DNA of 64,000 bases from Nemertoderma westbladi. Taxonomy: Eukaryota > Animalia > Xenacoelomorpha. The notes beneath the pieces were generated by a model. It worked only from the letters and a program-made list of their open reading frames with translations, ran no database searches and had not been told where the DNA came from. Shown here one piece after another: positions 15,978-41,617 of this stretch. Position 1 is the first letter of the stretch; every line of letters begins with the position of its first letter. Location: NCBI GenBank assembly GCA_032718475.1, contig JAUCBJ010007486.1, positions 1 to 64,000 of the forward strand, in the 5' to 3' direction. Position numbers and translations under genes: made by a program.

Positions 15978-15980
15978 AAA

Positions 15981-18516: not shown

Positions 18517-18564
18517 TACCAATTTGTACCAAATGAAAATAAATTGCCCCAAAATACAAATTTC

Positions 18565-18631
18565 CCGACTAAGATTCGAACTCGTAACCTATGTAATGCA
18601 ACCAACGCCTTAACCATCTGACCACTACGCC
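18565..18631 (-). ncRNA. Degenerate tRNA-like Pol III unit inside LTR A (second copy ~50504-50569)
   Basis: Minus strand GGCGTAGTGGTCAGATGGTTAAGGCG (A box, Ser/Leu-like D arm)...GAGTTCGAATC (B box), with TTTT about 10-15 nt downstream; cloverleaf incomplete. Confidence 0.55.
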
Positions 18632-19194
18632 ACGAGAGTAACTAGGGGTTTTATGTATACAAATATGAATAGGCATATTACATTACTGTAACTTAATCAA
18701 AGTGCGTCGGATTTTCGAAAGTTTTTTACGTTATACTACAAATGCTATTCTATAGTGAAATAATTCATCACCGCTCCATGAAAACAGTAAGTAAGACTGT
18801 TTTCACCAATCGAAATACGAAAACTATTTACAAATACTTCTAAGTCTACTGGTAGGGCCTAAAATATAAAACAATCACTATCTAATTATTGCATACTTAA
18901 TATTGCAGGTACAGCGTAAATACAATCCATCATACATACAAATACAAATTTACAAATCAACTTTAGTGCATAAAATACAAAAAGGCTTTCGGTTATCAAG
19001 ATAAACAAATTAAACAAATTAGATCAAACAAATTAGAACAAATCAAACAAATAATTTCAATCTTTCAATAAATCTTTATATATTGTAAATATACATAATT
19101 AACTTCCACCAAATTAAATCAGTTCAAATATAAAATAAACACAAGGCGCTAAAATCCCTTAAATAAGTATTAAAGTGTCCACCTGACGATCTAA

Positions 19195-19779
19195 ATAGTT
19201 CGTCCTGCTGGTCTGGATGTCTTCTCCTGAGCACTAATTGCTAACGGTAGGCTCGCAAGCCTTCCTTCCTTCATCTCGCTCTCCTAATCCTTGGTCGACG
19301 CTTTCGTCATTCTGGGCTCCTCCTCTTTAGGTATGGGCTCATCCACGTCCTCTAATACGATTGGGTGGTGGTCGGGATCGAACTGGCGCTCGGACTTCGG
19401 TGTCGAGCTGTCGGTGGTTCCTACGTCGAGTTGCCTGCGGTTCTAGAATACCGGGAAATGAAACGACCGCCTTCTTGATAACTTTGGTGGTTTGGGCAAC
19501 GCGCTAATATCGGCTCGGGGTTCTCGCAAACGTCGCTGGCGTCGCATAATGCATCGTAGGTGTACAACGCTTTGAACTCCGCCCGTAACTCCTCCGCTCT
19601 TTTGTTATGAGCGTCCAATCGCTGTCGCGTAACGTTTGGATCCGCCTTGGATTTAGCGAGCTTGGCTGTACTCCTAGCCATACTCTCCACTCCAAACAGG
19701 TTAAAGTTTTGGCCCCATATCGGTTGAACGGTGCCTGGTGCTCCTATTCCTGCGTGGATCCCTGATAATAGTGTTTCTA
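19195..19779 (-). pseudogene. Accessory 3' ORF region of element A, unknown product, disrupted
   Basis: GC-richer coding-like segment between pol and the 3' LTR (MARSTAKLAKSKADPNVTRQRLDAHNKRAEELRAEFKALY...C..C...C.H), preceded by a strong splice acceptor at 19780-19805. Confidence 0.45.
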
Positions 19780-20489
19780 CTAGAGGAAACACAAACAGAG
19801 GTTAGATGTGAGGAGACTTAGAGTTTTGTCGGCTTTTGGCTCAACTTTGCTCTAAAACCCCTACCCATTTGCCTAATGACTTCGGGTTCGCGTGATTTTG
19901 CACTGGCTCCTAATCCAAAATATGTGCCGATAAAAAACGAATTCCGGGTAAACTAGCCGCGAGTCTAAAATACTCACCTTTTAATTTCCCAAACTACATT
20001 CCCAAAGAAATAATAGTGCAGTCGAGAATTAATTCGGTCTGAATAATAGTAGACACGACTACGTAGAACAAGGCCGGTTTTCTTTTCCAAAAAAAAATTA
20101 TCGGTAGGCTCGCAAGCCTTCCATCCGCTCTTGTCCTCCCCAATTTTAATTTTATCTAGCTGTATTCTAGAATTCGCATTCACTGGAGAATCATTTTTCT
20201 TAAATTTAAATCCAACTAAATCGATTTGTCTAATAATTTTGAAAAATTGTCTCACTTGTGGGTTCCAAGTGGAATTCCATTCCTACTGTACACACAATCC
20301 CGCTCCTATGTGATACATAAGGGTACTACCCTCCATGTTCACATATAAAGACAATGGAATTCCACCGCTGTCTCTATCTACAGTGAAGAGGATTACAAAT
20401 GCACATACAGTAATACAAATACTAAATTACTAAAATACGGTAGGTCTATGTGGCGGCCAACAAAGGTCCCACATCTATTTACTAATATT

Positions 20490-21141
20490 GGGTGGAGATT
20501 TGTAGTCTCCTGTCTCGTTTCTAGTCTCCTCAAGGAGCACGAGACGTTGTACAGGTCTGTCTACGGTACGACCGTCGATAGTCCTTACAGTAACTGTTCT
20601 TATTACACCAGATGTAGGGTGCGTGGTCAAAATGACTCCCAGTCAGCCAAAACCATCTTTTCAGATTGGCTTCAGCCAATAAAACATGGTCACCACGTCT
20701 TAAACATCGGGTATTAAGATACCAAGAGGTTCTGGTCGAAATAGAGGGCAAATAATCTTTCTGCCATATTTCCCAGAATTTATTTGCAAGCAATTGAGTG
20801 ATTTTCCAAGCTTTGTTGCCGTATCCGTCGCTATTAACGGGTACCGAAATGGGCAACAATGTCGTCGGCGCCTGCATAAGCAGGTGCGCTGGTGTCAAGG
20901 CAAACTGTGCGTCGTTATCGTCTGGGATCAAAGCGATCGGTCTAGTGTTCAAAATCGCTTCGATTTCTATTAACAACGTCGTCAGTTGGTCGTCTGTCAA
21001 TATGTGTTGCGTCGGTACGACTTTAGCCATAGCTGTTTTTATTGAGTCAATCAGCCTTTCCCAAACGCCGCCTCTCCACGGACTGTCTGGAGTATTGAAA
21101 TACCAAACAATTCGGTGAGGACGTAGTTCCTCGGTAATCTG
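20490..21141 (-). pseudogene. Element A integrase, C-terminal part
   Basis: QITEEL...WYFNTPDSPWRGGVWERLI...EIEAILNTRP...LTPAHLL...FWEIW..DYL continues in frame from 33243 once element B is removed. Confidence 0.9.
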
Positions 21142-22409
21142 TGTACGCGCTTTTGAAGACCTTTAGCAGTTTAACCTGCCAAAATTTATATGTCTTTTGG
21201 TTTATAAATCGACTCTAGAAGATGACAATATTTAATACCAATAAACACAACATTAGCAGAAGCCAGCCTAGTGCGCGTCCATTCACCCGCTGGATAATCC
21301 CGGGAGACTGGATTCTGTCGGCTTAGATTATTATTGCAGTGAAGCTTACGGTATTGTATTATTCGATTGATCGTTAATAATTAATTTCTGACTAATATTA
21401 TTCACTTTCGGGAAATATTAACAGTTCCTTTAGGACGTGGCGCTCTATCTAAGTAAACAGAGATATGACTTATACTAATCACAACGGTAAGTCGGTAAGG
21501 CTTATGATTCACGTATGAGGCGCATTCTTTAGGAAATGCTTAGTTATCAGCCACAATCATGCACACTACCGGTAACACACAATACTGCTCACTAATTTGC
21601 CGACCGTCAATGAATTTTATCATATATAAAGAGAATAGCAACGGACTCATGTAGGGCTTATCAAATAGCATTAAATTCAATACACACCACAATAATATAA
21701 GTCGCAATCGCTATATATATAACCCGCCTCTCTAACCTGTAGTGTATCAAGAAAATTGGGAAATTTGGGTTCTTTATAAATGTTCTCCAAATAATATTCA
21801 ATCCACTGATATAAGATATGACAACAGTAAAAACATTAAGACGGTAGGTTAAGATATGATATGAACAGATATGTACAGCGATATGCACTGATATGGACCG
21901 ATAACAGTCATACGCTCTATAATTTAAGCCTACTAATGTTTCTTCTAAATTATGAAAAGAATTAACTCTAGAGCCGGTGTTTCTGGCTTAGACAGCAATA
22001 ACAACAAAGTATCAGTAAAAACAGTAAGACTGAACACTCTCCTTATAATCGACCGAAAAGCTACACGTCGACAGGAAAAATCGCTCTGATTGGCTCAAGC
22101 CAAACAAAGAACCATGCGTCCAATGGCTGTTTCCATGTCAGCAACCAGCTGTTAGATGTCGTAATATGAATCATCACGGCTAAGCTGTGAAAGGTATTTG
22201 GTGCATTGTAGGTTTTTTGCCTTACCATGTCTGCCAAAACACGTATATAGTAGAATGACTTTTATGTCCGTTAAAACACCTATAACGGTACCTTGCGGGC
22301 GAGGGGAATATTTATACAGTTAGAGAACCTTTTAGAGTATTCCAGCGCCTGGGGGGGAAACTGGATTGCGAAGCAAAGGGGCCAGTTATATCCCACAGAA
22401 GCTTTTACA
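21142..22409 (-). repeat. 3' LTR of element B
   Basis: Direct repeat of 32002-33242; PPT-like GGGAGCGG on the minus strand at 22410-22417. Confidence 0.95.
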
Positions 22410-22487
22410 CCGCTCCCAGAAAATGGGATTTGAGTCTATAAAATATACAAAATCACAGTTTCTAATATACGTAAATACTCTAAACAG

Positions 22488-23936
22488 TTAGTCTTTCTTG
22501 CGCGGACGGCGTTTACGCAGTTTCTTAAAGCTAGCCAGAGTCCTTTTCTCTTTGGGGCGAGCCACTTCACAAGGAGGGCTATAACTCCTGGGTGAAGGGT
22601 GCAATATGATTGCATCAGAGGATGTAGGATTATGGTCGGTGTATCCGCCAGTCGAAGTACCGGGTTGATTGACATCAACGTCAGGTGAGAGGGGTCTAAC
22701 GGCTTTGAGAGCTCGTTTCAAGACAGCCGCTCTTACGGGTCCTTTACGAGTGGTCTGAACGAGGGCCGTGGGTGGACCATAGGCAGTTAGAAACCTCCGG
22801 GGTTTAATGGTCCTTTCCAACTCGCGTTCGCGGGCTCGGTATTCGTAAGTCCGTCGATATACTTCCTGTAACTCGGGGTGTGAGTTAACAAATAAGTCTC
22901 CATAGTCCGGATCCTGACGGATATAATTGATTAAGTTATAGGAATGAAGGTCGCTAGGATTAACACTCCTGAGAAATTTGCGTACGAACTTGGTTGAAAT
23001 ACATTCTCCGACGCGCTTCAGTGGTTCGTAACTCGATATGCGTGATTTCTGTTCGACAGAAGCGAATAGATAAGGATGGAACGCATAAATTCCTTCGTAA
23101 GCGTGTCCGGGATAATAGCGATGGCGCGAATCACAATGTAAATCAGCGTTCGCTTCCCAAGCTCTGATGTAACGTAGTGTGATCATTTCATCTACGCTTT
23201 CCAAATCGCAATTAAAAGGGCAATCGAAACTGGCGTGTCCCTTTAGTTGACAATGGTGACATTGAGTCATAAATTGAGGGCAAACCGCAAAAATGTGCAA
23301 GTTATTGAGTCTGCAATACGCACAATAAATTTCCATCACCGGTTATTCGTGGAAATAGGAACAGCGGACGTTTGTGTACATGGGCGTAACATGGTCTCCC
23401 GATGCGCACAACCGACAACGTTGCCGAGAAACACAGTTGGCATGGCGATAATTGTACGCAGTGAGACACTGTGGACCTCGATACCATTCTAGGATATAAT
23501 CGTTGTCGCTGTTCCGGGCGCGATAGGCTGAATCTCCTCAGATTCTAGACATATTGGTTTGTCTTCCCAGTCTGTTACGAATAGAATTTTCGTGATCTAT
23601 TCTCGGTTTATCGTTACGACTCCGCTGGGTATGATATTTAAATAGAACCATTTCCCTTTCGGTGTCTACATCGTCCGTATCATGTAAATCGATAGGATGG
23701 CCGGTAGTTAGGAAGTCCATATACGTATCGTTACGATTCGTATAGCGAGTGGTGAATTTTCGATAGTCCAATTCACGCGCAAGTTGCTCTTGGGACATCG
23801 GCGGTTCGATATAACGACCATCGTCCTCCGTAATGGTTGGATCGGCTTCACCGCGTATTAAGCTATCCACAAATGCTTGTAAAGGTAGAGTATATCGCTC
23901 CCTAATACCAAGATCATCTTCTATCAACTCCGTCAT
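22488..23936 (-). pseudogene. Element B accessory 3' ORF: unrelated N-terminus plus CCHC knuckle module, two in-frame stops
   Basis: ORFs 23538-23936 and 22488-23339 share one frame; CRLC..., CAYC..H..C, CHHCQLKGHASFDC; C-terminal part closely matches 57436-58540. Confidence 0.8.
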
Positions 23937-25566
23937 ATCTGCTATCTGAGTTTATTAATATCAAATAAGTTTATATTTAGGCGAGCGGGCGTCGCTGCCT
24001 ACTTCTCTTTGCCCCCGGACAGTGGGATTCTCAGCGCCGATGTACCGTCGTCGCGGTGTTTACGCCAACATGTAGCAACATCACGACAACGATAACCGGC
24101 ACAAGTCACTCCACTGTCCGTCCCAAAGGCTTGAATCCACTTTAGGTTCTTTCTATAGGAGAGTTGGGCTACTTTCACAATTGCGACTAGCTACTGTAAA
24201 CACACCTTAGCAGTAACATTCACCTACAAACGCACAAATTCCACACAACTGTCACCAATTGTACACATACAGGCCATTTGTCCGTTAGTCAGTGCCTTCC
24301 AGAATGTCACGTTATTACTGTGTATCCTTGGATACTAACAGTGTGCTATGTATTCTCTATGCTATGCAATGTGACAAGCTTTCTATTGTTCTCTTAACTT
24401 GCTTCTAATTCTAGCGTGGGTGTTGCTATGGTGACATTATGGAAAGCTAGCGGTAGAATTAGGGTAATTCTCATGCATACAGATCTGGGATGCTATTTAA
24501 TAATAATTCTTTAATTGTCAATATCCTCTTTATGCATGATTTTATTAATTTTATCGGCTATTGACTATATGTTGGAGATTCTCGCACTCTAATACACTCA
24601 ATAGGATGAATCTCCGCTCCCATGATCTATTAATTAATGGAATTTTGGGAATGTTATAAATTGTACAAAATGACAATTTATGAAATTCATTTAAAATATG
24701 AATTTGAATTTATTCCCGTGAATTTTATTATTTGATGTTAAAATTGACACAATTTGATTCCAGAGCAGGTCTGGGGACATAGGATCCTTAATTCTATAAA
24801 ATTGTCTTTTAAGAGTATCGGTAAGTGCTGCGATATCTTAATTGACTAGAAATTTCAAAGGACCTGAATTTTACAGATTTTTACTAAATATTAAATTAAT
24901 ATTTAAGATGGGCACCGATTTATTCCAGAACTTGTCTGGGGACGTTAACCATTGATTCTAGAATTTGTCTTTCAAGTATATCGGTGGGTGCCGCGATATC
25001 TTAATCGACTAGAATTACAGATGGTCAAAAAGTTTAACAGATTTATTTGCGTTTTACGCTACTGTTAGAGGGACATCACGCTACTATATGTATTATTATA
25101 TATGGTATGAGAGCAATATCGCACGAAGCAATGTCAGTGTGAAGAGGCAAGTCGTTTCCAAGGTCTACCCAGAGCTTGGTTTAGCCGAGACACGAGGATC
25201 TGAACTTTGCATTCCTAATACTCTGCCTACCAATAATACTTAAGTATAGTAGGAGCTTTATTGTACTTTAATAAGTACGGACATTTCATCTTACTGTAGT
25301 CACGTATTTATAATATGATACGGACAGTAAGGAAAGAGAAAAAATAATTATTTCTCGCCGTCGCACTAAATATTATATATTATAAGTAATTACGTACGTA
25401 ATAAACACTAATATATTGCACTAATCTACTAGATAATCACTAAAAGAACATTCTACTAAATAAAATTAAAGAAAACGATTATAATAAAATTACATAATAA
25501 TACATACATAAATATAAAATAAAACAAATATAAAATGATATAGTCACACGCCCACTCCATATGTTA

Positions 25567-26214
25567 TTACGTTATGGAGTCCCTAGATATTTGTCGGATT
25601 AGGGAAGTGGTCGTAGGAAGAGTATCTTGCCTTCCATAGTTTCCGGACAGTTTTTGGTCTCTTTCCCGTAAACATAAACGACTAGCTGGGCGATTGAGTT
25701 GTTGTGTTACTTTCTCCGCTCCCTTGGCCTGTCTAATCTCCGCCGGGGTAAGATAAGGAGGCCATTCTTCTTCTTCTTTACTTAAGAAGTCGGATCCACC
25801 TAACCAACCTGGAGTATCTATCAGTTCTTGAGGAGTTGCTCCTCTGGAAGCGATGTCGGCTGGATTAATCGTCCCAAGGCAATGTCTCCATTGATCTACA
25901 TTGGAGTTAATATCGTCATTATCTGAGGAGTATGGTGTTCCCTCAGTTGGATCGTCCACATCACTGCTCTCCACTTCCCATTCCTTTACTTGGTATACCG
26001 GTTGTTGAGGTAATCTCTCTTTGAGAGTTCTACGGGAAGGGCCAGTGAAGTACCAACCTACTCTAGTTCTTACCGCATAGGTTTGCAGTGGCTGCGGTTG
26101 AGCAGGCCGTTTCTCCAATGTCTCGAGCGCCTCATGCGCGTTTTGGCCGATGAGTATTTGCACTCCAGGATAATCTGTCTGGAATCGAGGTATCTTAAGA
26201 TCAACCTCAATCAA
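25567..26214 (-). pseudogene. Element B pol remnant (post-protease segment joined to RNase H tail)
   Basis: QILIGQN...AVRTRVGWYFTGP then directly QWRHCLGTINPADIASRG...WLGGSDFL.K..EEWP; no RT between them. Confidence 0.8.
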
Positions 26215-26235
26215 TCCTCAAACCTCAAACCAATC

Positions 26236-29200
26236 TCAAACCTGTATAATTCCTGACATATTCAATTTAGTCCGGAATTTGGGTTGTCCAGCAAAAATAT
26301 CTTCGGCTAGTTCTTGATCGATGAATGTTCCTGTGCTGCCGGAGTCAAGGAGGGCATTCACTATGTAACTTTTGTTGGGACCGTGAACTCTTACCTGCAC
26401 TACAGGAAATTCTCTGATTCCTACGTTGGAAGTTGGAGCTTTCCAAGATGGTTGTTTGGCAAAAGTAGTTGGGGGAAACTCATTGTTGGTGTCCTTTTCA
26501 TAAGTAAGTGCTCGATACACTGAGGTATTTATTAGGTAACAGGATTCGATGGCGTCGGAGAATTCGTCAGTATAGAATCCTTCCATCTCAGACTCTTGAT
26601 CAGTGTCATTTACATCACTGAATTGGACATGTAGTTCGGGCTCACTTACCTGACTCGGGTTGTTTCGTTCGAACTCACTGTGTAACAAGATGTGATGTTT
26701 CGCGCCACACTTTGCACACTTTACGTCGGAGTAACAGGTTCGCCGTTGGTGTCCTGATCTGAGGCAATTATAGCATAACCGCTTATTCCATAGGACTGTA
26801 CGTCTGTCTACAAGGGATTTCTTTAGAAATTCAGCACACGCACTCAAACGGTGGGGCCCGTCGCACAGCGCACATTTTGGTTTGATATTACTCACCTTAC
26901 CTTGGGTAACGTTATGCACTCTCGTTCTTTCTTCGGGCTTTCTTCCGTGAATTCTCTTAGGAGACGTAGGAGGGGTTGTTGTTACCTGTTCTCTCCTGTC
27001 ACTGATTCGAGACTTGTATTTACTTACGTCTTTATAGGTCTTATTGTCATAGTAAGATTTTACTGTGTCTTTCCCGCTGTCCTCTTCTTGAGAAGCTTGG
27101 CTTTCGCCGTCGTCAGTATAACACACTGGTATTATCCTTCTCCTAGAAACGGGTTTCTCACTTACCTTATTTTCCAATGTTTTCTCTCTGGACTGCTTTA
27201 TGAGTTGTAATTTTACTTCATTATCTAAGAAGGACGTGAGATCAGCCATGGTAGGGCTTCGTCGTTGCTGCTCATTCATATACAACACTTTCTTGTCCCA
27301 GCGTGTACATACTCCACCCTTTGGTAAAGTAGAGACTACGGCTCCAATAACCATGGAACTCTGATATTCATGAGACTTACCTAACCAGTCCAATTGTCTA
27401 CAGATTTCCTGAATTTCATCGGAAAACTCTATAATCCCGCTACTAAGGAAGTGTCGAGGGGCCACTAATTTTGCATACAAATATTTAGCTATATTGTCCT
27501 TGTTACCATACCTGATGTTTAATGTATCCCAAACTTGTCTTAATCCTTCTGGATGTCCAATAAACTTTAACGCCATTAACTTGGGAGGTCCTTCCAAGCA
27601 TTTGATGAGGAACCTAAGTTTCTCTCCGTTAGATAGCACAGAGTGCTGTATGCTGTCTTTGTAATATTCATTGAAGGGTAACCATTTCATCTCATCTCCA
27701 TTGAATTTGACGATCTCTCCCACTTTGACCGCTTGGCGGGCTTCTGTTCTAGCCATCTGACGCGTAAAGCTCTCTTGGGCCATCGTGTTATTTAATATCG
27801 AATTATCGGTATATAAATTTCTCGGATCATTATCAGGTCTATAAGGAATATCATTAATAACAGGTCTATAATCACCCTTAATAGGGTTTGCTATAGGGGT
27901 TTCTACTTCACTAGCAGTATAGATGCGTGTAGGCTCCACACCTTGCGCATGTAATACTTCAGACCTAACAGGTTGACACAATGTTACAGGGGGTATTGGT
28001 ATGCCCTTTTGTATATTGACTAATTTGTCGCGTTCCAGCGCGATACTTTGCTGCACTTCTTGCAACTCTGCCCTACTTTCCCTTACTGTTCCCTTAAGCT
28101 GGTGGACAGTCTCCTGCATCTGTCCGAGCAGGAGGTTCATTCCCCGCCGTCCCTCCTCTACCCACTCAACCGCCGAAGCGGGAGTCGCCAACATTGTAGC
28201 GGGTTGACGCGGGACGATGGGAGACAAATCTTTGATTCCTCTCTCAATGCTCAGGACAGGGGTATTTGCATGGACTGTTCCACCGGGTACAGGCAGTGTA
28301 GTACTGTGTAAAGGGAATTTAGAGTTAAGCTCTGGAAGTGCAGGGGTCTCTAGCACAGGAGTGACTTTGGGAACGACAGGCCTAATTATTTCAGGCTCAT
28401 CGACTATAGTAGGGAGTCTTTTGACCTGAAGAAATTGTTCTATGGGTTCTACACTACCTAAGTCTGTGCTAGTTAGTTGTCTTTTAACAGCTGGGGGCAA
28501 ATCAGGCAATTTGTGACGGTAAGATGTTTTTCTACGCCTGCTTAGACGAGATCTATTTCCTCCGCCTTCAGGATCGGTGGTTTCGCTTTCCTCCGATGAA
28601 GTATAGCCCTGGCGTTTGGGAGTAGATTTTCTCATCATCTGCATGTGACTAGCAGTTAACTTTTTATTTATGTTGTCTTGCGTCTCTTGCAGCTTCTCCA
28701 ACTCCAGTTGGGTAGTCTGCTCAGACGCTCTTCGTTCTGCTTCTGCTACTGCCTTTTTCGCCCTTGCTTCTGCTTCTGCCATGGCCGCCTTTGCTTCTGC
28801 CGCCGCTGCCTTTCTTTGTGCTTCTGCTTCTGCCATGGCCGCCTTTGCTTCTGCCGCCGCTGCCTTTCTTTGTATTTCTGCTTCTGCCATGGCCGCCTTT
28901 CTTTGTATTTCTGCTTCTGCCCTTGCCGCTGCCTCCTTTCTTTCTGCTTCGGCTTCTGCCATGGCCGCCACCCTTTGTTCCTCTATCCGTCTTTTCTTTA
29001 CTTGTTCTTCTTGGACTCTAACGAGTCGGAGTTTCTCATCAAACTCAGCTTGGTTAGCAGCTAACATTTCAGCATCGATTGCGTCCAACACAAGCTTGGT
29101 TCCTTCACTATTAGGGCGAAGTCCAGACAGTCGTCTCCTCAACTCTTCGTCTCCTATGAATCGCTGATAGTCTGACAGATAGATGTCAATGGCGTCTCTA

Positions 29201-29748
29201 GTTCGCGGCTTCTCTGCTGCTGTTAATTCGCTTTCCACTTCGCTTTCCACCTCGCTTTCCACTTCGCTTTCCACCTCACTTTCCACTTCGCTTTCCACCT
29301 CACTTTCCACTTCGCTTTCCACCTCACTTTCCACTTGAGAAGAAGTGGCGTCGGTTGATTCTTCATAGGTTGGCCGCTCATCATAAACCGTATCCGCCAT
29401 CTTCGCTCCGCGTTCGGGCGTCCGCTCAACAGTATCCGAACTACTGGAGCTATCGGGCCGCTGAGAACTAGGTTCTTGGCTAGGAGGTTGCTGCTGTTTT
29501 ATAGCTTCTTCTTGATCCCGCTTGACTTGGGCCCGAGTGCCTATGGCAGACCAACGGCGCTTCACTAACTTCGCAAATTGCGAAATCTTTTCTACCAACC
29601 TAGGTTCTGACACAACCACTGCAGGGGTTGCCCTTCTTACCGTATGAGGGGTTTCAGACCTTGGTCTGGGATTCTCTACACTTTGATCTGAGAAACAGGC
29701 TGTTGTTTCTAGGAGACTATCTGACAGAGTTTGCCTTGTGTCAGCCAT
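26236..29748 (-). CDS. Element B Gag-protease polyprotein (1170 aa)
   Basis: Coiled-coil N-terminus, capsid-like KFNGDEMKWLPF...EKLRFLIKCLEG, BEL triple knuckle (CALCDGPH..C / CYNCLRSGH...C / CAKCGAKHHILLH), protease ALLDSGS. Confidence 0.9.
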   Translation of the reverse strand: MADTRQTLSDSLLETTACFSDQSVENPRPRSETPHTVRRATPAVVVSEPRLVEKISQFAKLVKRRWSAIGTRAQVKRDQEEAIKQQQPPSQEPSSQRPDSSSSSDTVERTPERGAKMADTVYDERPTYEESTDATSSQVESEVESEVESEVESEVESEVESEVESEVESEVESELTAAEKPRTRDAIDIYLSDYQRFIGDEELRRRLSGLRPNSEGTKLVLDAIDAEMLAANQAEFDEKLRLVRVQEEQVKKRRIEEQRVAAMAEAEAERKEAAARAEAEIQRKAAMAEAEIQRKAAAAEAKAAMAEAEAQRKAAAAEAKAAMAEAEARAKKAVAEAERRASEQTTQLELEKLQETQDNINKKLTASHMQMMRKSTPKRQGYTSSEESETTDPEGGGNRSRLSRRRKTSYRHKLPDLPPAVKRQLTSTDLGSVEPIEQFLQVKRLPTIVDEPEIIRPVVPKVTPVLETPALPELNSKFPLHSTTLPVPGGTVHANTPVLSIERGIKDLSPIVPRQPATMLATPASAVEWVEEGRRGMNLLLGQMQETVHQLKGTVRESRAELQEVQQSIALERDKLVNIQKGIPIPPVTLCQPVRSEVLHAQGVEPTRIYTASEVETPIANPIKGDYRPVINDIPYRPDNDPRNLYTDNSILNNTMAQESFTRQMARTEARQAVKVGEIVKFNGDEMKWLPFNEYYKDSIQHSVLSNGEKLRFLIKCLEGPPKLMALKFIGHPEGLRQVWDTLNIRYGNKDNIAKYLYAKLVAPRHFLSSGIIEFSDEIQEICRQLDWLGKSHEYQSSMVIGAVVSTLPKGGVCTRWDKKVLYMNEQQRRSPTMADLTSFLDNEVKLQLIKQSREKTLENKVSEKPVSRRRIIPVCYTDDGESQASQEEDSGKDTVKSYYDNKTYKDVSKYKSRISDRREQVTTTPPTSPKRIHGRKPEERTRVHNVTQGKVSNIKPKCALCDGPHRLSACAEFLKKSLVDRRTVLWNKRLCYNCLRSGHQRRTCYSDVKCAKCGAKHHILLHSEFERNNPSQVSEPELHVQFSDVNDTDQESEMEGFYTDEFSDAIESCYLINTSVYRALTYEKDTNNEFPPTTFAKQPSWKAPTSNVGIREFPVVQVRVHGPNKSYIVNALLDSGSTGTFIDQELAEDIFAGQPKFRTKLNMSGIIQV

Positions 29749-31019
29749 GTTTGATTGTACAGTCGAATGCCTACTGCTATATTACAGTTAAAGCAAGTCT
29801 AGTAATTCAGTATCACTGTTAGCCTAATAATTAATTACCGATACTGCTACTCAGTGTAGCGTGATATATATATAATATATTAGAATACCGGTATGCTTAT
29901 AATATATATATAAGTATTATTACAGACTAGATTTGTCACAGAGTACCGGTATATAATTTTAGCACAAATATATATAAATATATAATAGGCCTATCGTGAA
30001 TACCGGTATGCAGCTTACACTTATAGTATATAAGTATAATTCTGGACTAGAATTAATTACAGAATACCAGTATGATTTCAGCACAAATCCATAGAAATAA
30101 ATATAATAAGCCTATGGTAAATACCGGTATGTCAATTATTTTAGAATAATTGATTTTCTGAATATTTTAGTGTTACTTGGTTACTTTAACTTACTTTGTT
30201 ACCGTTATTTAAGCAGTAGTCCAACTGATATTGAGACCTAGTTGTTGTATGGTAGGCCTACTATTTATAAATCGTTTGAGTTGATTTATAATAGATATAT
30301 ACCCATTTAAAAGGGGTTTTGTCAAGATTTGAAATAAATGTTATTATTTCTGGGGGAGTCACTACACAGAAGCTGTGCGCTCTCAGTGAAGTGCTACCTA
30401 TGGGACACTAAAACAGATAATTCTAATTTACCTAAGTTACTTAATACTACAAATTACTTACGATACGGGTGAGATTAAATCTCTAATTTAACACAACAAA
30501 AATATTACGTACGAAATTTTTAGGGTAATTTTACAGGAAGTCTACAAACCAGCCTAACAAAGGGTTAGAATTCTGGTTATTACAACGGACGGGGTACTAC
30601 GGTATTTGAAAATAATAAGTAGTAGTAAATATATTGCGTTGTCCAGATAGGAAAATACCACCGCCTGACGACCTATAACCGTATCGCTATAGGTACTACG
30701 TTATGTATCACGGAGTGTTCCTACCCAGAAGTTAATAGAGCTAACGAATGTGCCTATCAACCACTTTACAACACAAATATACTGCCTACACACTAATTAC
30801 TTCGGAAAGCACTGTACACTAAACCCTAAATTAGGTACAAGTACTGGTACAACAAATAATCAGTAGTTAAATATACTTGAACAGTTAAAAGAACCACGGC
30901 ATCTGCTGGAGTGACCGAAGCACAAAGTCACCAGTCTTTACCTACGCCAAGCAGCCCGTGTAGTACCGGGGTTAATTTAACTATAACGGTATGTGTAACA
31001 AACACAATTACTGTAGGAA

Positions 31020-31600
31020 TAAACTTGGGGACATGAATGTTGCGAATAATCGCATAAACTCTGAATAATAAATATTACGCTACCCGTACAGAATACCCAA
31101 ACAAATACAAACCAAAATGCTGGCAGACTACCACCAAGCCTAAATAAACTACTGTATGTGCAGATTCCAAAACGGTTAGTTAGTATGCGTTCTAACACGG
31201 TAGTACGACTTATTCTTTAAGAGGGGATTGACCTTACAGTTATGACTGCCCCAACTTACTAACTGGCACTTTATCAGACAAACTCTACACAAGCAGCAAT
31301 CTCTTCAGACCTAGTAATAGCTAGACAACAATCCAGCCTACAAAATATCTGAGTAATAACTATTACGGTACCTGGACAGACTACACAAACAAACACAGGC
31401 CTAAACGCTGGCAGAATACTGTCAAGCCTAAATAAACTACAGTATGTGCAGATTCCAAAATCGTTAGTTAGTATGCGTTCTAACACGGTAGTACGACTTA
31501 TTCTTTAAGAGGGGGTTGACCTTACACTCAAGTTGCCCCAACTTACTAACTGGCACTCTATCGGACAAACTCCACACACGCCGTAATCTCTCCAAACCCA
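31020..31600. repeat. ~290-bp tandem duplication in the element B leader (with shorter repeats at ~29840-30130 and ~31810-31935)
   Basis: GCCTAAATAAACTAC...GTAGTACGACTTATTCTTTAAGAGGGG...AACTGGCACT occurs at ~31138 and ~31426. Confidence 0.8.
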
Positions 31601-31990
31601 ACAACAATCCGACAACAGTCTGGCCTACAGTTATCTGAACAATCTGAGCAGACTTACACGTCTTCAGCTCAATATTAACTTACTAGGAAATAAAACCGAC
31701 AGAAATAGGTAAAATCTCAATAAAAACCAGGGCTGCAGTCCCTGATTAAATACTAAGACCTACCGGTATACAATAATCAAAATCGAATAATACTAATGTA
31801 CTTATACTGGAAGTACCGGTTAGGACAGTTGGGCCTACAGGCCTACAGAAGTACCGGTTCTGGCAGTTGGACCTACGGACCTACAGCAGTACCGGTTCTG
31901 GCAGTTGGGCCTACTGACCTACAGAAGTACCGGTTCAGGTTTACCGGTCGATCGGTACTTTCAACTTTATTGCTTACTGCAATAAAGTCA

Positions 31991-32001
31991 ATGACTGTTA
32001 T
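31991..32001 (-). promoter_or_regulatory. PBS-position sequence of element B, complementary to its own LTR
   Basis: Minus-strand ATAACAGTCAT abuts the 5' LTR; its reverse complement lies in the LTR at 32735-32745 and 21901-21911. Confidence 0.7.
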
Positions 32002-33242
32002 TGTACGCGCTTTTGAAGACCTTTAGCAGTTTAACCTGCCAAAATTTATATGTCTTTTGGTTTATAAATCGACTCTTGAAGATGACAATATTTAATACCA
32101 ATAAACACAACATTAGCAGAAGCCAGCCTAGTGCGCGTCCATTCACCCGCTGGATAATCCCGGGAGACTGGATTCTGTCGGCTTAGATTATTATTGCAGT
32201 GAAGCTTACGGTATTGTATTATTCGATTGATCGTTAATAATTAATTTCTGACTAATATTATTCACTTTCGGGAAATATTAACAGTTCCTTTAGGACGTGG
32301 CGCTCTATCTAAGTAAACAGAGATATGACTTATACTAATCACAACGGTAAGTCGGTAAGGCTTATGATTCACGTATGAGGCGCATTCTTTAGGAAATGCT
32401 TAGTTATCAGCCACAATACTGCTCACTAATTTGCCGACCGTCAATGAATTTTATCATATATAAAGAGAATAGCAACGGACTCATGTAGGGCTTATCAAAT
32501 AGCATTAAATTCAATACACACCACAATAATATAAGTCGCAATCGCTATATATATAACCCGCCTCTCTAACCTGTAGTGTATCAAGAAAATTGGGAAATTT
32601 GGGTTCTTTATAAATGTTCTCCAAATAATATTCAATCCACTGATATAAGATATGACAACAGTAAAAACATTAAGACGGTAGGTTAAGATATGATATGAAC
32701 AGATATGTACAGCGATATGCACTGATATGGACCGATAACAGTCATACGCTCTATAATTTAAGCCTACTAATGTTTCTTCTAAAGTATGAAAAGAATTAAC
32801 TCTAGAGCCGGTGTTTCTGGCTTAGACAGCAATAACAACAAAGTATCAGTAAAAACAGTAAGACTGAACACTCTCCTTATAATCGACCGAAAAGCTACAC
32901 GTCGACAGGAAAAATCGCTCTGATTGGCTCAAGCCAAACAAAGAACCATGCGTCCAATGGCTGTTTCCATGTCAGCAACCAGCTGTTAGATGTCGTAATA
33001 TGAATCATCACGGCTAAGCTGTGAAAGGTATTTGGTACATTATAGGTTTTTTGCCTTACCATGTCCGCCAAAACACGTATATAGTAGAATGACTTTTATG
33101 TCCGTTAAAACACCTATAACGGTACCTTGCGGGCGAGGGGAATATTTATACAGTTAGAGAACCTTTTAGAGTATTCCAGCGCCTGGGGGGAAACTGGATT
33201 GCGAAGCAAAGGGGCCAGTTATATCCCACAGAAGCTTTTACA
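32002..33242 (-). repeat. 5' LTR of element B
   Basis: Direct repeat of 21142-22409. Confidence 0.95.
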
Positions 33243-36200
33243 ATCTGGTTTTGGTCCAACTTTCTCAAAGCTCTGGTTATATCGTTCCGTGCACCCACAA
33301 AGTTTGTCCCTTGGTCGCAATAAATGGATTTGACCAATCCACGTCTAGCGATAAATCGCCGTAAGGCTAGGATAAAGGCATTGGTGGTCAAATCTGTCAC
33401 ACGCTCTATATGGACAGCTCTGCTGGCCATGCAAGTGAAGATCAATCCCCAACGTTTTACCTGTACCCTTCCGCGTTTTGCGATTATGGGTCCAAAACAG
33501 TCTATCCCTGTCTCAGTGAAAGGGGGTCTAAATGCCTGTAATCTCGCTAGTGGTAGTTCACTCATTTCTTGGTGTCCTATCCTCGCGTGCACCTTCTTAC
33601 AAATCATACAGTTCCGTGTTACCGAACTCAGTGCCTTACTAGGTCTAATCAGTACAATCCTCGATCGTAAGTGTGATAGACAGTGGTGTCTACCCACGTG
33701 TTTGAGTTGTACATGTGCGTCCAGTATCATAGCGCGCTGTAATTCATGGTGTTGCGGTATGATGATAGGATACCTAAAGTCTAGTGCAAAGTCGATGTTT
33801 TGGAGTCTGGACTTGTGACAAAGTAAGCCCCGGTAAATAATCGGACTCCAACTCAAAATCGGTGAAGACTTAATCTGTTTACCTTGGTTGATCGCTGTGA
33901 ACTCTCGTGTGAAATATCGCAATTGATAATGTCTAATGATATCAACTTCGCAATGACCAATTTCCTTTAAGGTAAGTCTTCTAGGAAAGTCGCGTTTGCC
34001 TCTGGCATATTGTCTCAAACGTTTGAGCCATGCTAACTTGCGGCACGCGTCAGTCCATGATCTAGTTAGGTTTACTATCCGGTCAACGTAAGTGTTAGTG
34101 ACGTCATCAGGTAAGGTATAGTCGTATTGTGGATACTTGTCTGGACTTGGTAGGCCCACGGGCCTTCCGGTGGGTTTGTCTGAGTCCTCAAGTACGTCAA
34201 TCTTTACGGTCTTACCTTTACCGTCCGCTCCTAGTGTGTCGACTGGCAGTAACGGTTTCAACTCTACAGTGTCAGTGTGTTCCTGTGAGCCTGTAAGCTT
34301 CCTAACCTTAGTCACACGTTTACCTGTAGGTGGTAAGTCAAGTACCTTCTTTGAGCGGAGTGTGATTGCTGTGGCCACACCTTTGTCGTCCAAAGAAGTC
34401 AAATCCGGTAAGTCTCTAAATTTCCGCTCCAATGGGTCTTCTAGTGGAGTGTCTAGTAGACAGTCTGGTGAAGCGTCCGGTGAACAGTCTGGTGAGACGT
34501 CTGGTGAGACATAGCGCGGAACTTCCAGCGAAATGTCCTGTCGTCGGTCCCAAGGTCTGTCTGGCGTAACTTCTATCAGAAAGTCTGGTCCAAAGTCTGG
34601 TCTAAAGTCTGGTGGACAGTCTGTCGAGATGTCTGGTGGAAAGTCTGGTGAGACGTCTGGTAGACATTCTGTCGAGAGTTCCATCAAACAATCTGGCGAA
34701 CAATCCGGAGAACAATCTGGTGTCACTTCTGGTGAATAATCTGGCGAGTAATCTGGTGAACAATCCGGCGAAATGTCTGGTGAAATCTCCCGCGGAACAT
34801 CCGGTGAAAGATTCGTACAAGCGTCTGGTCGAGTGTCTGGTGAGATGTCTGGCGTAATGTCAGGTCTGGCGTCCAGGTCATCAGATTTCATCCGTCCTTG
34901 TTTCCTCTTGACCTTGGCGTTGGCTTTCGCTTTGGACTTGACAACCTTGTCGATTTTTATCTCGGCACCCTCTGGTATGGTGTTGGTTGTCGCGTCGAAT
35001 AACAGTGGCTATTCATCTGATGGTCGCTGTAGGAAATCGGGTCCTCTAAACCAAAAGGATTTATTGTCCGGTTTACAAAAGACAAGCGGTTGCATCCCCC
35101 GTGACGCGATGTCAGCTGGGTTCAGCTTCCCTGGACCGTGACGCCAATCTTGTTTGAGCGACCGGTCTAATATTTCAGCCCGTCTGTTGGCTACGAAAGT
35201 CTTGAACTCAAATGCTTCGTTGTTTATGTACCAAAGTACCAACGTCGCATCCGTCCAATATGTGACCTTCAAGTTAGCCTCCAGCTCGCGTTGAACTAGA
35301 CTGACAATATCAGTGGATATCGTCCCGGCTTGCAGCTCCCCACGAGGTACAGTCATATACTTCAACGGCATTGTTCTAGCCCTAGAAGTAACGAGAGACA
35401 CATCGTAGCTGTCCGATGTCACTTGTCGTCTAAGGTACAAAGTAACCCCCAATCCATCCTTGCTAGCGTCACTAAAGCTGTGAAGCTCTAAATCGGCTGG
35501 AAAGGTGGTTTGCAAAGGAAAGTATACCCTCGGTATGGTATAGTCTTGTAGGAACATCAGTTGGGCTTCCCAGTCCCTCCATCGCTCAGCTAACTTTTCT
35601 GGGATGGGATCGTCCCATTCCAGTCCGGCTTGCCAAATGCTGCGGAGTATGATCCTAGCATGTAGGATCACTGGACTAATGAAACACAATGGGTCATACA
35701 ATCGACTCATGGTCGATAAGCAAGTCCTCTTAGTGAGAGGTCTAGTCTGGTCGTTGGACCTTACACGTACCCTAAAATTGTCGGTGTTAGGGTCCCAACT
35801 AAGTCCTAATACTTTGGTCGTCGGCAGAGGTTCTAGGTCTAAGTCTAAATCACCTCCACTGCGATCCGTCGGGTCAAATGAGTTCACCAGTTCGGGTTCG
35901 TTGGAAGCGAACTTCGTCAGGTGGAATCCGCCCTCAGCGAGACAATCCTGGAGTTGGTGTGCTACGGTTGTAGCGCGCTCCAAGGTGTCACAACTCTTGA
36001 GGCCGTCATCCACGTAGAAATCTCGTTCCACTGTCCGAACTACTTCTGGATCAAATTGGTCTCGTCTGTCCAATGCGGTCTGCTTTAAGGCGTACATGGT
36101 GCAGTTGGGGCTGTCCCTGGCTCCAAATACTCTTACCTGCATTTGGTAAGTTTCTGGCGGAAGTTCTAAGTTTCCGTCCGGATACCAAAGAAACCTCAAG

Positions 36201-37180
36201 CTGTCCCTGTCCCGCTCCAAAGCCTTAACCTGGTGAAACATGGCCTCTACGTCACAGGTGAAAGCCACTTTGCGTTGTCTAAAACGCATTAGGACTCCCA
36301 TGAGGTAATTGTTCATATTCGGCCCGTCCATCAGTTCGCTGTTCATAGACATCCCTTGGTAAAGCGCAGCGCAGTCGTTGACTACACGCACCTTGCCAGG
36401 TTTGTCCGGGTGTCGAACAAAATGATGTGGCAGGTAATATGTCTGGTCTGTGGTTACCTCGGGATTTAACATCCTAATGGCGTATCCCTTTTGGAGATAC
36501 GTCTGAAGTTGTGCATTGTATTGCATATGGGCCGTCTCGTCTCGCAACAATCACTGCCTTATTGATTTGAGTCGCCTCAAAGCAAGCGGGTAATTGTTAA
36601 CGAGTTTAGGTTGTCCATTGCGCCACAACATACCAACCTCATAGTGGCCATTCGCGGTCTGGCGAATGGTATCTCTCATAATATTTAATGACCGTTTTTC
36701 CTGTTCTGACATAGCGGTCTCGTAACTACCGGGTTCTGCTGAGTCCTGTTCCAACCATTGAATGGTCCGTTCAGTCAGCAGTCGGTCTAGCGCTGCTTGC
36801 ACTGCGCCCTGGTCCTCGTCCACGTCTTCGTCCGCTGCGGTGGCTAGTGTCAATGCGTCTGGTAGGCTCGCAAGCCTTCCGGTGTCACTAGTCGGCGTCG
36901 AATCGTCGTGCGGCGGTTTGACAACTTCTTGATCTATCGGTAGGCTCGCAAGCCTTCCAAGATCAACGACCGGTGTCGAAGCCTGGTGGGTGGGGTCAAT
37001 GACCTTTGGATTTTTCGGTAGGCTCGCAAGCCTTCCAAAATCCTCGTTCATCGAGTCATCCACAGCAACAACCCTTTGGTCTTCGGTAGTCAATACAACC
37101 TGGTTTACTGCAAGTAGTTGTAAGTCAGAGGTCCGTGTGGTCGTGTCCAGATCAGTTACGTCAGTATCGGTGGCGTCTGC
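33243..37180 (-). pseudogene. Element A pol: RT, RNase H and integrase N-terminus/core, with stops
   Basis: YYLPHH...KVRVVNDCAA...CDVEAMFHQV...FGARDSP...FYVDD; HSFSDAS...VPRGELQA...WTDA...NPADIASRG; H-H-C-C (DAHVQLKH...CMICK), TGIDCFGP, IYCDQGTNFVGA. Confidence 0.95.
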
Positions 37181-37181
37181 G

Positions 37182-40100
37182 TTAGCGACGCAAGTCTGTC
37201 GTAGTGCCGTCCGTACAATTGGACCACAGGGAGTGTGAAGGAGAGTTATCTATCGTAGTAGTCAATAAACTACATGTACTCAAAACATCGTCCTCCTGGT
37301 CACTTACCTCTAGTGAACGTATTGGTGCTCTAGTATACCAACCTATGGGAGTTCTACATGCGTAGGGGTTGCCCGCTGTAATAACAGATGGGCGTGTCTC
37401 CCATACCTGATGTAAGTTAAACTGGTCTGTCCCAATTAACATCGCAATGGAACGATAATTAACAGGACATTCCGGTATTCCAAGGTGTCGGAAATACTTA
37501 CGATCTTCCGGTGATTGCTCTGGCACAGGGCCGAGCAAGTTACTAAAGTCCTTCGTAGCTGCAAAGGTCAAATTTCTTACCGGAAGTAATGAGCGCTCCT
37601 CCTTGCTGTGTTCCGCTTTGGAAAGAAGAGTGTCTAAGGTTAGTTTTACTCTTGTCACAGGGATCGCTCTCTTACCATGCATGCTGCTTACAGTATACTG
37701 AGCAGTCTTACCTTGACTCATGTCCGTAACCACGTCGGCTACTTGTTCGTCGACATAACTATGCGATGACGCAGAGTCTAGGATAGCGTATATACGCTTG
37801 CTCCCTCGGGTTCCGGTAATCTTTATAGGAACCACGCTAAACCCTTTCAATTGGTTCTGTGTGAGGAGCGTTACCGATGGTTGTTCCTCACCCGCATGCA
37901 CGTAGAAAGTATCGTCTTCCTCCTCGTCCTCGTCCGATGATCCTGACTGATCCATACAGTCCGCGTAAAACGTACGGATCTCGCGCGGCGCACGCTCCTT
38001 ATATAATGCGTCGCATCTAGCCGCTTTATCTGGATGCTCTCGTCGAAAGCGTCTGGTCGGAGTATGACTAGTAGTGTGAAGTAACGCGTCATGGTTACGT
38101 CCACACAGAGGACATGTATCGTCGCTCGGGCAATCCTTCCGGACGTGTCCTGGCTTCGTACATCTCCAGCAAGAATCTAAAGATCGGATTTGGAGTCTCC
38201 TCTCCTCGATTCCCAACTCTTTAAAGGCGCGACATCCACGAAGTTTATGTCCGCTATGGTTTCTGCCGTTCCGCTCGCAGTATGAGCATCCCACAAAGTC
38301 CGCCGGCAACTGTTGTCGTGGCTGCGTGGTGCCGATAGGCGTCAGAACTTTAGAAGTCTCAGTAGGGGTGGCGTAGGTAACGGCTTTCGCGTTCGTCGGA
38401 AACGGTTTAGTCCGATTCGGCGCAGAAATAGCTATCCCTTCTGCCGCGATATGATGATCAGTATAGTTCGATCGGGTCTCGATCACGGCCTCCCGCGAAA
38501 TCAGTTGATAGACGTCAGTGAGTTTTAATAGCCCGCCGGCCTCTTCACGCTGGTACTCGATGCGACGCCATTCTCGTCGGAGTCGATGATGAAGTCGACC
38601 GATTATCCTGATGAGAACTGTCGGTGCGTTAGCGTACTCGAGTTGTCCAATGGACCGTAAAGTCCCTATAGCGTTTTTATTTCGTCCGCGAGTCGTAGAA
38701 GATCGATCGGTTTCGAAATGCTGCCTCCTCTACAGAGGTCTTCGATAATGGATTTAGCCATGGCGACGTTACCTCCGTAAATCGAATATAAACGGTCGTA
38801 CGCCAACTCAAAGGCATCGGGAACACCAATGAAGGTTTCCGCTAATCGTTTCGGCTCACCAGACAGGACTAGGAGCAAGTAATTAAACTTCTCCGTCGAG
38901 GTGAAAGCACACTTAGCGATCTGGGACTCTACGTAGTCTACCAGTGTGCGCCAGTGTTTCGCGTTGCCAGAGAACTTCGGCGGTTGCTGTGCCGGTAATC
39001 CGTGTCTAGCCGCGAATTTCGCAATCTCGCTAACCAAATCCAACTGTCCACGTCCCTGTTCGGTGGCGTCGTCCAGTCGCTCCCTTCCGCGCGTTGTTCG
39101 TCGGTAGGAATTATTAACGGGATCTTCTTCTCGATGGTTCGGAGTCTGTCTAGTCTCCTGTTCTCTCCTTGGTGATCGATGTTGTCTAGGTTGTTCTAAC
39201 TCCACGCTGGTTCGTGATCGATCCGACGGTTGTGTTTCGAGTCGTTCTTCGATTTGAGCTAGTCGGTCCGCCATCTCGGTGAACTGTTTGGCGTTAATCG
39301 CTTCCGCTGGTTGCAACGTGGGTTTCTGCAAAGGTGTTTCTCGTGGTGGATTGTCGATGTATGGGTTCGTTGATCATTCCTCCCGTTTGTAATCAGCCGC
39401 CGCTCCAGTACGGAATATTTCCCATTCCGTCGACTCCGAATCGCTGGATGAATCGCTGTCATCCGGATAAGGTGGTTGGCGGGTTCGCGTACGGCGTATT
39501 ACTCTTGGTCGAGTTCGTTGTGGTCTGGGATCTACGGCTCTCCGTTGTTCGGTAGGATCGCAAGCCTTCCACGAAGTCGTAGGTCTCGTTGAACTCGGTT
39601 CGATCCTGTGGGTATTACCCACATCCGTCGTCCTTCGTTGTTCGGTAGGCACGCAAGCCTTCCACGAAGTCGTAGGTCTCGATAAACACTGTGTGAGGGG
39701 TCTAGTAAAAACATCGGAGTTAAGTGCTACTGTAGGTTTATAAATGACTGGGTTCGCGCCGCACGTTACAGGTTTAACTTGTAATGGTTTACTCACCTGT
39801 TTTACTGTCATAAACGCAGGTTCGTCTCTCTCTACTAGTAAACTACGGCTTACAGTAGGTGGACTACTTATCTTACCTGCGAGAATCGGCGATGAAGTCG
39901 CTCGTGGCTGCGGAATTGATTCCGACATAACAAACCTATTCGCTTGCACGGGTGATATTTCCTTCGGTTTTGCAACCATAACCGGTGTTACTGGAGTCAT
40001 GGGTTTGAGCATAGGAATAACTTGGGGAAAACGTTTACAGTAATCCTCGACGAACGCCTCTCCTCGATCTATCGCTCCCACACTTCCTTCCTCGATTCGC

Positions 40101-41279
40101 TTCTGAATTCCGCGATATCGAGTCTCCATGCGATCCAGGGCAGACAAGTCGTGTCCAGCTCGAGACCTTATAGATCTATCTCTCGCGTCGAGTTCGAGGT
40201 CCTCTTGCGCGTTCGCCGCCTCGCGCGATCTATGATTTAGTTTGAACTGGAGCTGCATCTCCCTTTCGCGTCGATCTGCTATCTGTTGTTGCGCTGCTCA
40301 TTCCGCTTCCTGTATAGCTAAACGAGCGTTTATTTGTCGCGCCTCCAACTTGGCACGAGCGTCGGATGCTGCTTTCTTCCATGCAAACTCAGCTGCGTTT
40401 ACTGCCGCAACTCGTGCTAACTCATCGGCTGCCGCCGCCCGTCGTGCTAACTCGTCGGCTGCTGCCGCTGCGGCCGCTTCTCGCGCTAAGTCCTCTTCCA
40501 GTCTCCGCATTTCTGAAGCTTCAAATTCGGCTTGAGCCTGGAGTTTCGTAAAGTTTGCTACATCGTCTCTACGCTGTCTTTCTCCTTCAGCCGCAATCTG
40601 TGCCAACTGCCGTTGCGTTTCTTCCTCAGTGACTTGTTGTCGGCGTGCGACCTCCTGTTGTTGTCGAGTAATTACAGACGCTGTCCTACTAACGTCGCCA
40701 ACGTCGCTCCGTACACTAACGAACGATCTATCCAGTGGTGGAATTTGGTAGGCTCGCGAGCCTTCCGTAGTAAGAACTTCCGTCGTCCCTCGCGGTTCGA
40801 CTTCCGGTTCTTCGATCGGTACGCCGCATCTACGAAGAAAATTGGTGAGCGTCTCTAACCTCCCGTCCAGGCAGTAGAGTTCTTCTTCCTCTTCGGGTTG
40901 TAACAACGCGTCCGAAACTGACTCACCTAGCAGTTAGTCGAACTGCTCCTGTTGAGCCAATCTTATCACCGACTTAAACTGGATAAGGCTTTCTCTCGCA
41001 CTTACCAACTTGTCTATTATCTTTACCTGAGTAAAGTTATCGCCACGCAACTCTGCAAGTTCGTATAAACCTTTAAGTTTATCTACGGAGGCATGTACCC
41101 TCTACCTTCTATCCTTACCTGTAAGGTGTAGAACTCGTATCTCGACATCGGGGTGGTTAACTCGCGTAAAACGCGAAAACCTTCTCCGAGGTTCCGAGTA
41201 ATCTGGGCCATGTGTCCTCCTATACTCCTAATAACGTTCTCCTGGCTTCCAGTCGAACTTACCATGTCCGGTTCCCGCG
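37182..41279 (-). pseudogene. Element A gag-protease, several stops; N-terminus lies at 47310-47511 beyond the LINE
   Basis: KFSGNAKHW...EKFNYL; CSYC..H...C / CWRCTKPGHVRKDC / CPLCGRNHDALLH; protease AILDSAS; frame restored across the LINE (...FLTVP-REPDMVSS...). Confidence 0.9.
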
Positions 41280-41617
41280 ATCTGGTCAGCAGTATGTGTG
41301 TGCTCTGATTGTCTGCTGTTGTGTTGCAAATACCGGTATTGAATTAGGCCTAATGGCCCCATTTTGAACTCTTTAATTATTGAGATGCGCATCCATATTG
41401 CCATGATCCTGCCCACTGCCTGAGCCATAAACCACTCTACGCTGACTTTAATCAAGTACTCTGTCAGTCTGTACTCGCCTGATACCAGTAATTCGTGGGA
41501 CCTCCGGAACTGGGAATTTTCAAATTGTAGTCTGCCAATCAACCTACAATCAGTGACTGACCTACTCTTCTCGACTTCTGTAGGCTGAATCTGTGGAAAA
41601 GGCAGAAAGGCCTAGTT

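Follow-up and report, generated by a model that had tools for sequence, protein, structure and literature searches.

Why would a retrotransposon scatter nine copies of one short palindrome through its own genes? This question is raised by a 64,000-nucleotide stretch of the Nemertoderma westbladi genome (contig JAUCBJ010007486.1 of assembly GCA_032718475.1, positions 1 to 64,000; hereafter the window), in which a long terminal repeat (LTR) retrotransposon that we call element A spans 16515-50708 on the minus strand and carries a 20-nt motif in gag, in pol and downstream of pol. Element A is a multi-copy member of Bel/Pao, about 16 kb long without its nested inserts. Our observations support constraint on the motif as nucleic acid rather than as peptide, and we tentatively read it as a dispersed packaging and dimer-linkage signal for Gag on the genomic RNA.

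Nine copies of one motif in a single element

Scanning both strands of the window with up to six mismatches allowed returned nine sites, all on one strand, and no tenth, which reproduces the copies, positions and single orientation listed in an initial annotation of this sequence. Five sites are exact, three differ by one change and one by four. Following element A from 5' to 3' (all copies lie on the minus strand), copy 1 (40747-40766; one change) sits in the N-terminal region of gag, where it is read as EGSRAY and has a CGCG loop. Copies 2 (39644-39663) and 3 (39551-39570), with one change each, belong to a pair of 93-bp units in gag; the change in copy 2 is private to this genomic copy, and copy 3 has one stem mismatch. 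The exact copies 4 (37017-37036), 5 (36939-36958) and 6 (36861-36880) make up a 78-bp triplet in the linker between protease and reverse transcriptase (RT). Copy 7 (34149-34168), in the linker between RNase H and integrase, is the most divergent: the stem exchange noted initially, from T-A to C-G (U-A to C-G in the RNA), is there, but the copy has four changes in all: a compensatory pair in the stem and two changes in the loop, which reads CGUG. The remaining two exact copies lie further downstream, copy 8 (20103-20122) beyond pol in sequence with an ambiguous codon score, and copy 9 (19246-19265) at the end of a probable 3' accessory open reading frame (ORF), where it is read as GRLASLP. The translations first proposed (GRLASLP in pol, WKAC.PT and EGSRAY in gag) are correct.

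None of 100 dinucleotide shuffles contained any match to the motif within three mismatches, and a 16-of-20 match like that at 34149 is expected 0.006 times per 16 kb. Outside element A, across 48,016 bases of the window, the closest match has seven mismatches, and within A's LTRs and leader it has eight, so the earlier statement that the motif is absent from the LTRs and from two further elements of the window, B and C, holds. An unbiased search for dispersed 18-mers recovered the motif as the sole family in A besides a TA-rich stretch, and no such family in B, C, the nested LINE (long interspersed nuclear element) or the flanks tested.

Beyond the window, the exact motif was found in no viral contig, once in metagenomes (inside a bacterial gene) and twice in prokaryote genomes, and a degenerate pattern gave four single matches in viral contigs. 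We discarded these seven loci as chance occurrences: none has a second copy within five mismatches or any similarity to the window. Rfam gave no match in the window at the gathering score and none over the triplet at E<=10. To our knowledge, the motif matches neither the histone stem-loop nor the iron-responsive element, nor p53 or ETS sites. A micro-insertion with target duplication was rejected, as the flanks of the copies show no consistent duplication.

The motif is constrained as nucleic acid

Because the motif is read in all three frames, its peptide is not the conserved thing. Its peptide readings occur in none of 120 related proteins. The triplet offers the closest comparison. Its three motif copies are identical at 20 of 20 positions, third codon positions included (6/6), whereas the two complete spacers are alike at 32 of 58 positions and at 8 of 18 third positions (binomial 7e-6), as the initial annotation had it in describing an invariant motif between diverged spacers.

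The same contrast appears across the family. Within 36835-37062, ten places vary at 2% of depth or more, and none of them falls in the 60 motif positions (hypergeometric 0.044 over the 228 bases, 0.013 over the inner 176, and 0.021 when one possibly misplaced row is dropped; Poisson 0.025-0.031 for a variant-free triplet motif against the rate across 7 kb). The initial annotation had proposed selection on the nucleic acid, to be given up if the motif were no better conserved than its flanks. It is better conserved, with modest p values in a family-level test based on short unitigs, and the three reading frames, the third codon positions (6/6 against 8/18) and the lack of family variants in the motif all agree with that proposal. 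A micro-insertion found throughout the genome, the other result that would have spoken against it, is likewise disfavoured within the window, where the motif does not occur outside A.

In copy 2, the single change (place 39651) is private, since all depth in two runs carries the canonical letter there; the changes in copies 1, 3 and 7 may be private or shared, going by the 40 of 628 variant rows covered. One contig in run X3 has two motif ends joined across 32 unrelated letters, and one record in run X4 has a single 93-bp unit instead of two. Motif number and context therefore vary in the family while the motif itself persists. When the nine copies are aligned, all 15 invariant columns lie within the 20-mer, and identity stops at the edges of the palindrome.

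The pol copies occupy element-specific linkers

Each of the four pol copies falls within an in-frame expansion of a linker, and relatives are without these expansions. The protease-RT expansion (36810-37310, minus strand), which contains the triplet, makes this linker 139-167 residues longer than in all five relatives, of 120, that span it. The RNase H-integrase expansion (34100-35000, minus strand), which contains copy 7, makes that linker 242-329 residues longer than in the 21 of 21 relatives that span it. Both expansions are element-specific, and the relatives' sequences used for the comparison leave out the gag N-terminus. Among 7995 scored candidates we found no relative of the triplet linker, which is weak evidence. 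Degenerate 12-bp repeats of the DxSP type (34400-34870) form much of the RNase H-integrase expansion. The motif-bearing linkers illustrate what might lead the polyproteins of retrotransposons to acquire long disordered linkers.

Predicted hairpin and dimer

Computed on the sense strand of the element, the motif folds as first described, GG-A-AGGCU-(UGCG)-AGCCU-A-CC, that is, with a GG/CC base, an A-A mismatch, a 5-bp stem and a four-base YGYG loop. With 35-nt flanks, the hairpin has a probability of 0.79-0.96 in seven of the nine copies. Both mismatched adenines are invariant (9/9), as are loop positions 2 and 4, both of which are G; the loop itself is UGCG in seven copies and CGCG and CGUG in one each. 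In five of nine copies, a U-G pair closes the base of the hairpin. Four-change variants that keep both the Watson-Crick stem and the A-A mismatch, as copy 7 does, make up 0.4% of all such variants, or 1.3% if only transitions are allowed. Copies 4 and 5 have bulged lower stems that, read from their folds, differ by two compensated pairs. A general lower stem was rejected for seven of nine copies by flank shuffles.

The motif can also pair with itself. Through G-U pairs it is fully self-complementary on the sense strand, and each of the loops UGCG, CGCG and CGUG pairs antiparallel with its own copy by C-G and G-U pairs. All three are among the 36 of 256 loops that self-pair on the sense strand, whereas two of the three antisense loops do not self-pair. 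The computed energy of the dimer minus that of two monomers is -14.9 kcal/mol for the sense strand versus -7.1 for the antisense strand, and when the flanks are widened to 150 nt, mutual pairing among the triplet copies is predicted for the sense strand only. Overall, we judge that the motif probably functions as RNA; a function as DNA seems to us unlikely, and the lack of any function very unlikely.

A candidate packaging and dimer-linkage signal

The probable 3' accessory ORF of A (19170-19801, minus strand), which has a GC content of 0.5-0.55 and a coding-like codon score and is broken near 19440 and 19290 in this copy, may be expressed from a spliced message. Among 13 donor-like sites, those at 47676, 47581 and 19977 are strong; eight of the nine motif copies fall within the putative intron and one lies in the 3' exon. 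Provided that this splice occurs, both messages share the leader, and a signal specific to the full-length RNA must therefore lie in the intron.

We favour the explanation, to which we give a probability of roughly 0.4, that the motif is a dispersed packaging and dimer-linkage signal for Gag on the genomic RNA. Each copy would fold into a YGYG-loop hairpin whose loop G would be a binding site for the zinc knuckles of Gag, much as G218 of the UGCG loop is for the nucleocapsid protein (NC) of Rous sarcoma virus (RSV). Copies 78-93 nt apart would permit multivalent loading of Gag, whose chaperone activity could turn hairpins into 20-nt inter-copy duplexes through G-U pairs. Such duplexes would tie two RNA genomes together or compact one of about 14 kb. 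A move of the signal into gag-pol would be explained by the position of the long leader, which lies in the LTR and putative first exon and would be shared with the spliced 3' ORF message. The copies occupy linkers in which the polyprotein tolerates them.

Several known systems resemble parts of this scheme (the papers cited here are represented by excerpts). In the packaging signal of RSV, the G in the UGCG loop of SL-C is bound by NC, with the loop described as secondary for packaging in vivo (PMC5035970, PMC7291142). The likeness to the RSV micro-Psi lies in the UGCG loop of seven of nine copies, in the second-position G of all nine and in the zinc knuckles of A's Gag. The difference is that micro-Psi has the loop once, in a 5' leader signal of 82 nt, whereas in A nine near-identical 20-mers are spread over gag, pol and the 3' region, with binding being a prediction here. 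For Ty1 RNA, dimerisation is believed to proceed by way of palindromes, which bind protein as well (PMC4974528). Like the Ty1 PAL sequences and the retroviral dimer initiation site (DIS), the motif is a self-complementary RNA that, by computation, can exchange a hairpin for an intermolecular duplex; PAL and DIS number one to a few, each distinct and at the 5' end, whereas the motif is a single repeated sequence that keeps its A-A mismatch and lies well away from the 5' end.

Dispersed viral packaging signals are generally degenerate motifs and are not known as exact 20-nt repeats. Such signals have been described in RNA viruses (PMC8472981), including SARS-CoV-2 (bioRxiv 10.64898/2026.06.18.733228). 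MS2, HBV, picornaviruses and SARS-CoV-2 share with element A numerous hairpins that are set in coding sequence and spread over a long RNA genome; they are non-retroelement viruses, whereas A is an LTR retrotransposon. For Bel/Pao elements, our searches of the full-text literature, largely that of non-subscription journals and without supplements, turned up no account of a cis-acting RNA signal.

Several results weigh against a packaging and dimer-linkage signal. Concerning the fold, the hairpin probability in context drops to 0.14 for copy 3 (39551) and to 0.02 for copy 7 (34149), and once G-U pairs count as stem pairs, the stem survives in 14% of variants with four transitions. One pair has changed on both sides, which 168 of 500 shuffles match, so that with so little variation the covariation is not significant, and the covariation score lies under the shuffle mean. 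Thus, of the initial proposal of selection on RNA or DNA, the selection on nucleic acid stands, and the compensatory change does not carry the case for RNA. Against flank shuffles, the lower stem reaches 0.038 in copy 4, 0.12 in copy 5 and 0.19-0.95 in the other seven, and antisense lower stems do equally well (0.03, 0.04). The CGCG loop may be a private mutation, as judged from the 40 of 628 variant rows. Concerning the context, the splice sites are putative, and the acceptor-like site near 19780 was read by eye and falls under the scan threshold. The related elements B and C have no such repeat (B lacks most of pol), and the single orientation of the copies does not discriminate, as the DNA motifs targeted by VANC proteins are also one-orientation. 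The RSV loop, moreover, carries the secondary weight in vivo mentioned above. Finally, retroviral and Ty1 signals are known, in the excerpts, near the 5' end; Psi and DIS are defined by a place in the 5' leader or the initial few hundred bases, whereas the motif has no copy in the LTR or leader.

We regard as doubtful the more far-reaching proposal that a Bel/Pao lineage exchanged a single 5' packaging and dimer signal for a portable 20-nt module housed in purpose-grown linkers, so that two ~14-kb genomes would be zipped together at nine points, Gag would be nucleated along them and reverse transcription would be primed from the element's LTR rather than by a tRNA. Were the packaging and dimer module real, the dispersed-signal model would extend to LTR retrotransposons, and the module could serve as a portable tag by which long RNAs are packed into Gag particles. 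At 20 nt, the motif can readily be made as synthetic RNA and DNA probes, with the natural variants (the compensated stem and the three loops) as built-in controls.

Alternative explanations

Hairpins on the unspliced RNA could instead be multivalent sites for the 3' accessory protein or a host adaptor, serving nuclear export or germline localisation by the logic of Rev and its response element (RRE), of CERV or of constitutive transport elements and direct repeats (CTE/DR). The layout of A, with a probable 3' ORF, strong donor-like sites upstream, an acceptor-like site near 19780 and eight of nine copies in the putative intron, fits this explanation, and the A-A mismatch kept in all nine copies suggests specific recognition over maximal pairing. 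Precedents exist in Cer1, whose genomic RNA needs CERV, the product of a spliced message, for export (PMC10309623), and in RSV, whose export uses two direct repeats (PMC5035971). Element A is like the Rev/RRE and CERV systems in being an LTR element with a probable spliced accessory ORF and most copies in the putative intron. It differs in having no single large response element and in a 3' ORF for which we found no homology: none of seven candidates is a homolog, there is no usable Atlas match, the best Pfam E value is 0.067, and a single-sequence AlphaFold model (pLDDT 55) gives no usable fold. One copy in the 3' exon, splicing that is itself putative and an export role that needs no full self-complementarity of the loop further speak against it, and we would bet against this explanation.

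Slightly less plausible in our view is a palindromic double-stranded DNA site (half-sites GGWAGGCT, 4-bp spacer) for a dimeric element or host protein that keeps the element body active in the manner of VANC. The near-perfect dyad, its restriction to one family within the window, the weak covariation and lower stems that are not strand-specific are all compatible with such a site, and the one orientation and partly tandem spread recall VANC targets (PMC5735166). VANDAL/VANC of Arabidopsis shares with A a family-specific short motif, in one orientation and partly tandem; it concerns DNA transposons and 9-bp non-palindromic sequences that, in the excerpt, are mainly non-coding, whereas A has a 20-nt dyad mostly in coding linkers, with at least seven of nine copies in coding sequence (7/9 in gag-pol frames). 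No copy lies in an LTR or the leader, where chromatin control would be expected. Nor does a DNA site require the symmetric two-sided change of copy 7, and all the spacer changes seen keep sense-strand pairing. Element A is without CpG depletion (1.14) and therefore shows no sign of methylation pressure. Either an export site or a DNA site, if real, would point to a role for the uncharacterised accessory ORF.

That the motif has no function, being a short palindrome that template switching or conversion in the course of reverse transcription has spread and made uniform within a fast-amplifying family, is very improbable: five of nine copies do stem from two tandem duplications, the X4 record has only one of the two 93-bp units and the family conservation test is modest (p 0.01-0.04, short unitigs), but the copies occupy six unrelated contexts and three frames, their identity ends where the palindrome ends, no other dispersed repeat exists in A besides the TA-rich stretch, and the 32 unrelated letters of the X3 contig show the motif surviving in a further context.

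Architecture of the host element

Element A is flanked by a 5-bp target duplication, CCAGG, and interrupted by two nested inserts. Its 5' LTR (48464-50708, 2245 bp) and 3' LTR (16515-18770), both on the minus strand, bounded by TG...CA and free of motif copies, differ by 33 substitutions over 2239 aligned bases (1.5%). The gag-pol region (33146-41200, minus strand) encodes DUF1759, three zinc knuckles, protease, RT, the Pao RNase H domain and integrase; in this copy it is decayed, with several stops and two frameshifts. The C-terminal part of integrase (20530-21141, minus strand), with DUF5641, lies beyond the insertion of B. These features place A in Bel/Pao: DUF1759 and three zinc knuckles in Gag, Peptidase_A17, the order protease, RT, RNase H, integrase, and DUF5641 after the integrase, together with TG...CA LTRs, the 5-bp duplication and a purine tract before the 3' LTR. 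The nearest database proteins are 45% identical across RT-RNase H. The family is multi-copy, with 9880 and 4916 contigs mapping to 7 kb of A in two runs from different studies, one of which perhaps gave rise to the window itself.

By eye, the LTR of A begins with ~560 bases (50151-50708 and 18217-18770) that resemble a complete short LTR with TG...CA and TATA, followed by TGGTCC. A tRNA-like stretch is visible by eye inside this part, and ARAGORN finds no tRNA. The 2.25-kb LTR may have grown by absorbing an old leader.

On sequence grounds, A and B appear to carry a Tf1-type self-priming signature where a tRNA primer site would be expected. In both, the 10-11 bases that directly follow the 5' LTR are exactly complementary to a stretch of the element's own LTR (chance 0.0024 and 0.0008): in A, a 10-mer inside the LTR (49803-49812, minus strand) complements the first ten bases after the 5' LTR (48454-48463), and in B, 31991-32001 pairs with 32735-32745. 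Control offsets of 0-499 gave matches at two and seven offsets. We found no tRNA primer site after the 5' LTR of either element, and A lacks the TGG start. The source excerpt lists Tf1-type self-priming for Tf1/Sushi, Tcn1, TAR, Houba and Osr-1, and does not list Bel/Pao.

The two inserts are without the motif. Element B (21142-33242, minus strand; target duplication ATCTG) is a Bel/Pao element with most of pol deleted, inserted in A's integrase. The LINE (41200-47310, plus strand, ends approximate and set by eye) lies in the start of A's gag and carries an intact ORF2 of 1106 residues. Since A itself sits inside the 3' ORF of an element on the opposite strand, nesting reaches four levels, and its order is consistent because the LTRs diverge by 1.5% in A and 0.4% in B.

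Other features of the window

Related 3' ORFs occur in three elements, C (57436-60032), B (22488-23951) and the element that hosts A (15887-16514), with a common zinc-knuckle region (tblastx E 3e-8). A 596-residue part of the product in C has no Pfam or PDB sequence match and is similar to 3'-5' exonucleases of viruses (Atlas 0.91, with PF01612 on 28-38% of the members); as a lead only, the product of this ORF could possibly be an anti-small-RNA nuclease. At 2377-2926, two facing arrays of a 17-bp unit form a large inverted repeat. Two probable host genes complete the window, a mucin-like ORF of TTPGA repeats (52413-53981) and an exon encoding a fibrinogen C-terminal domain (10640-11293).

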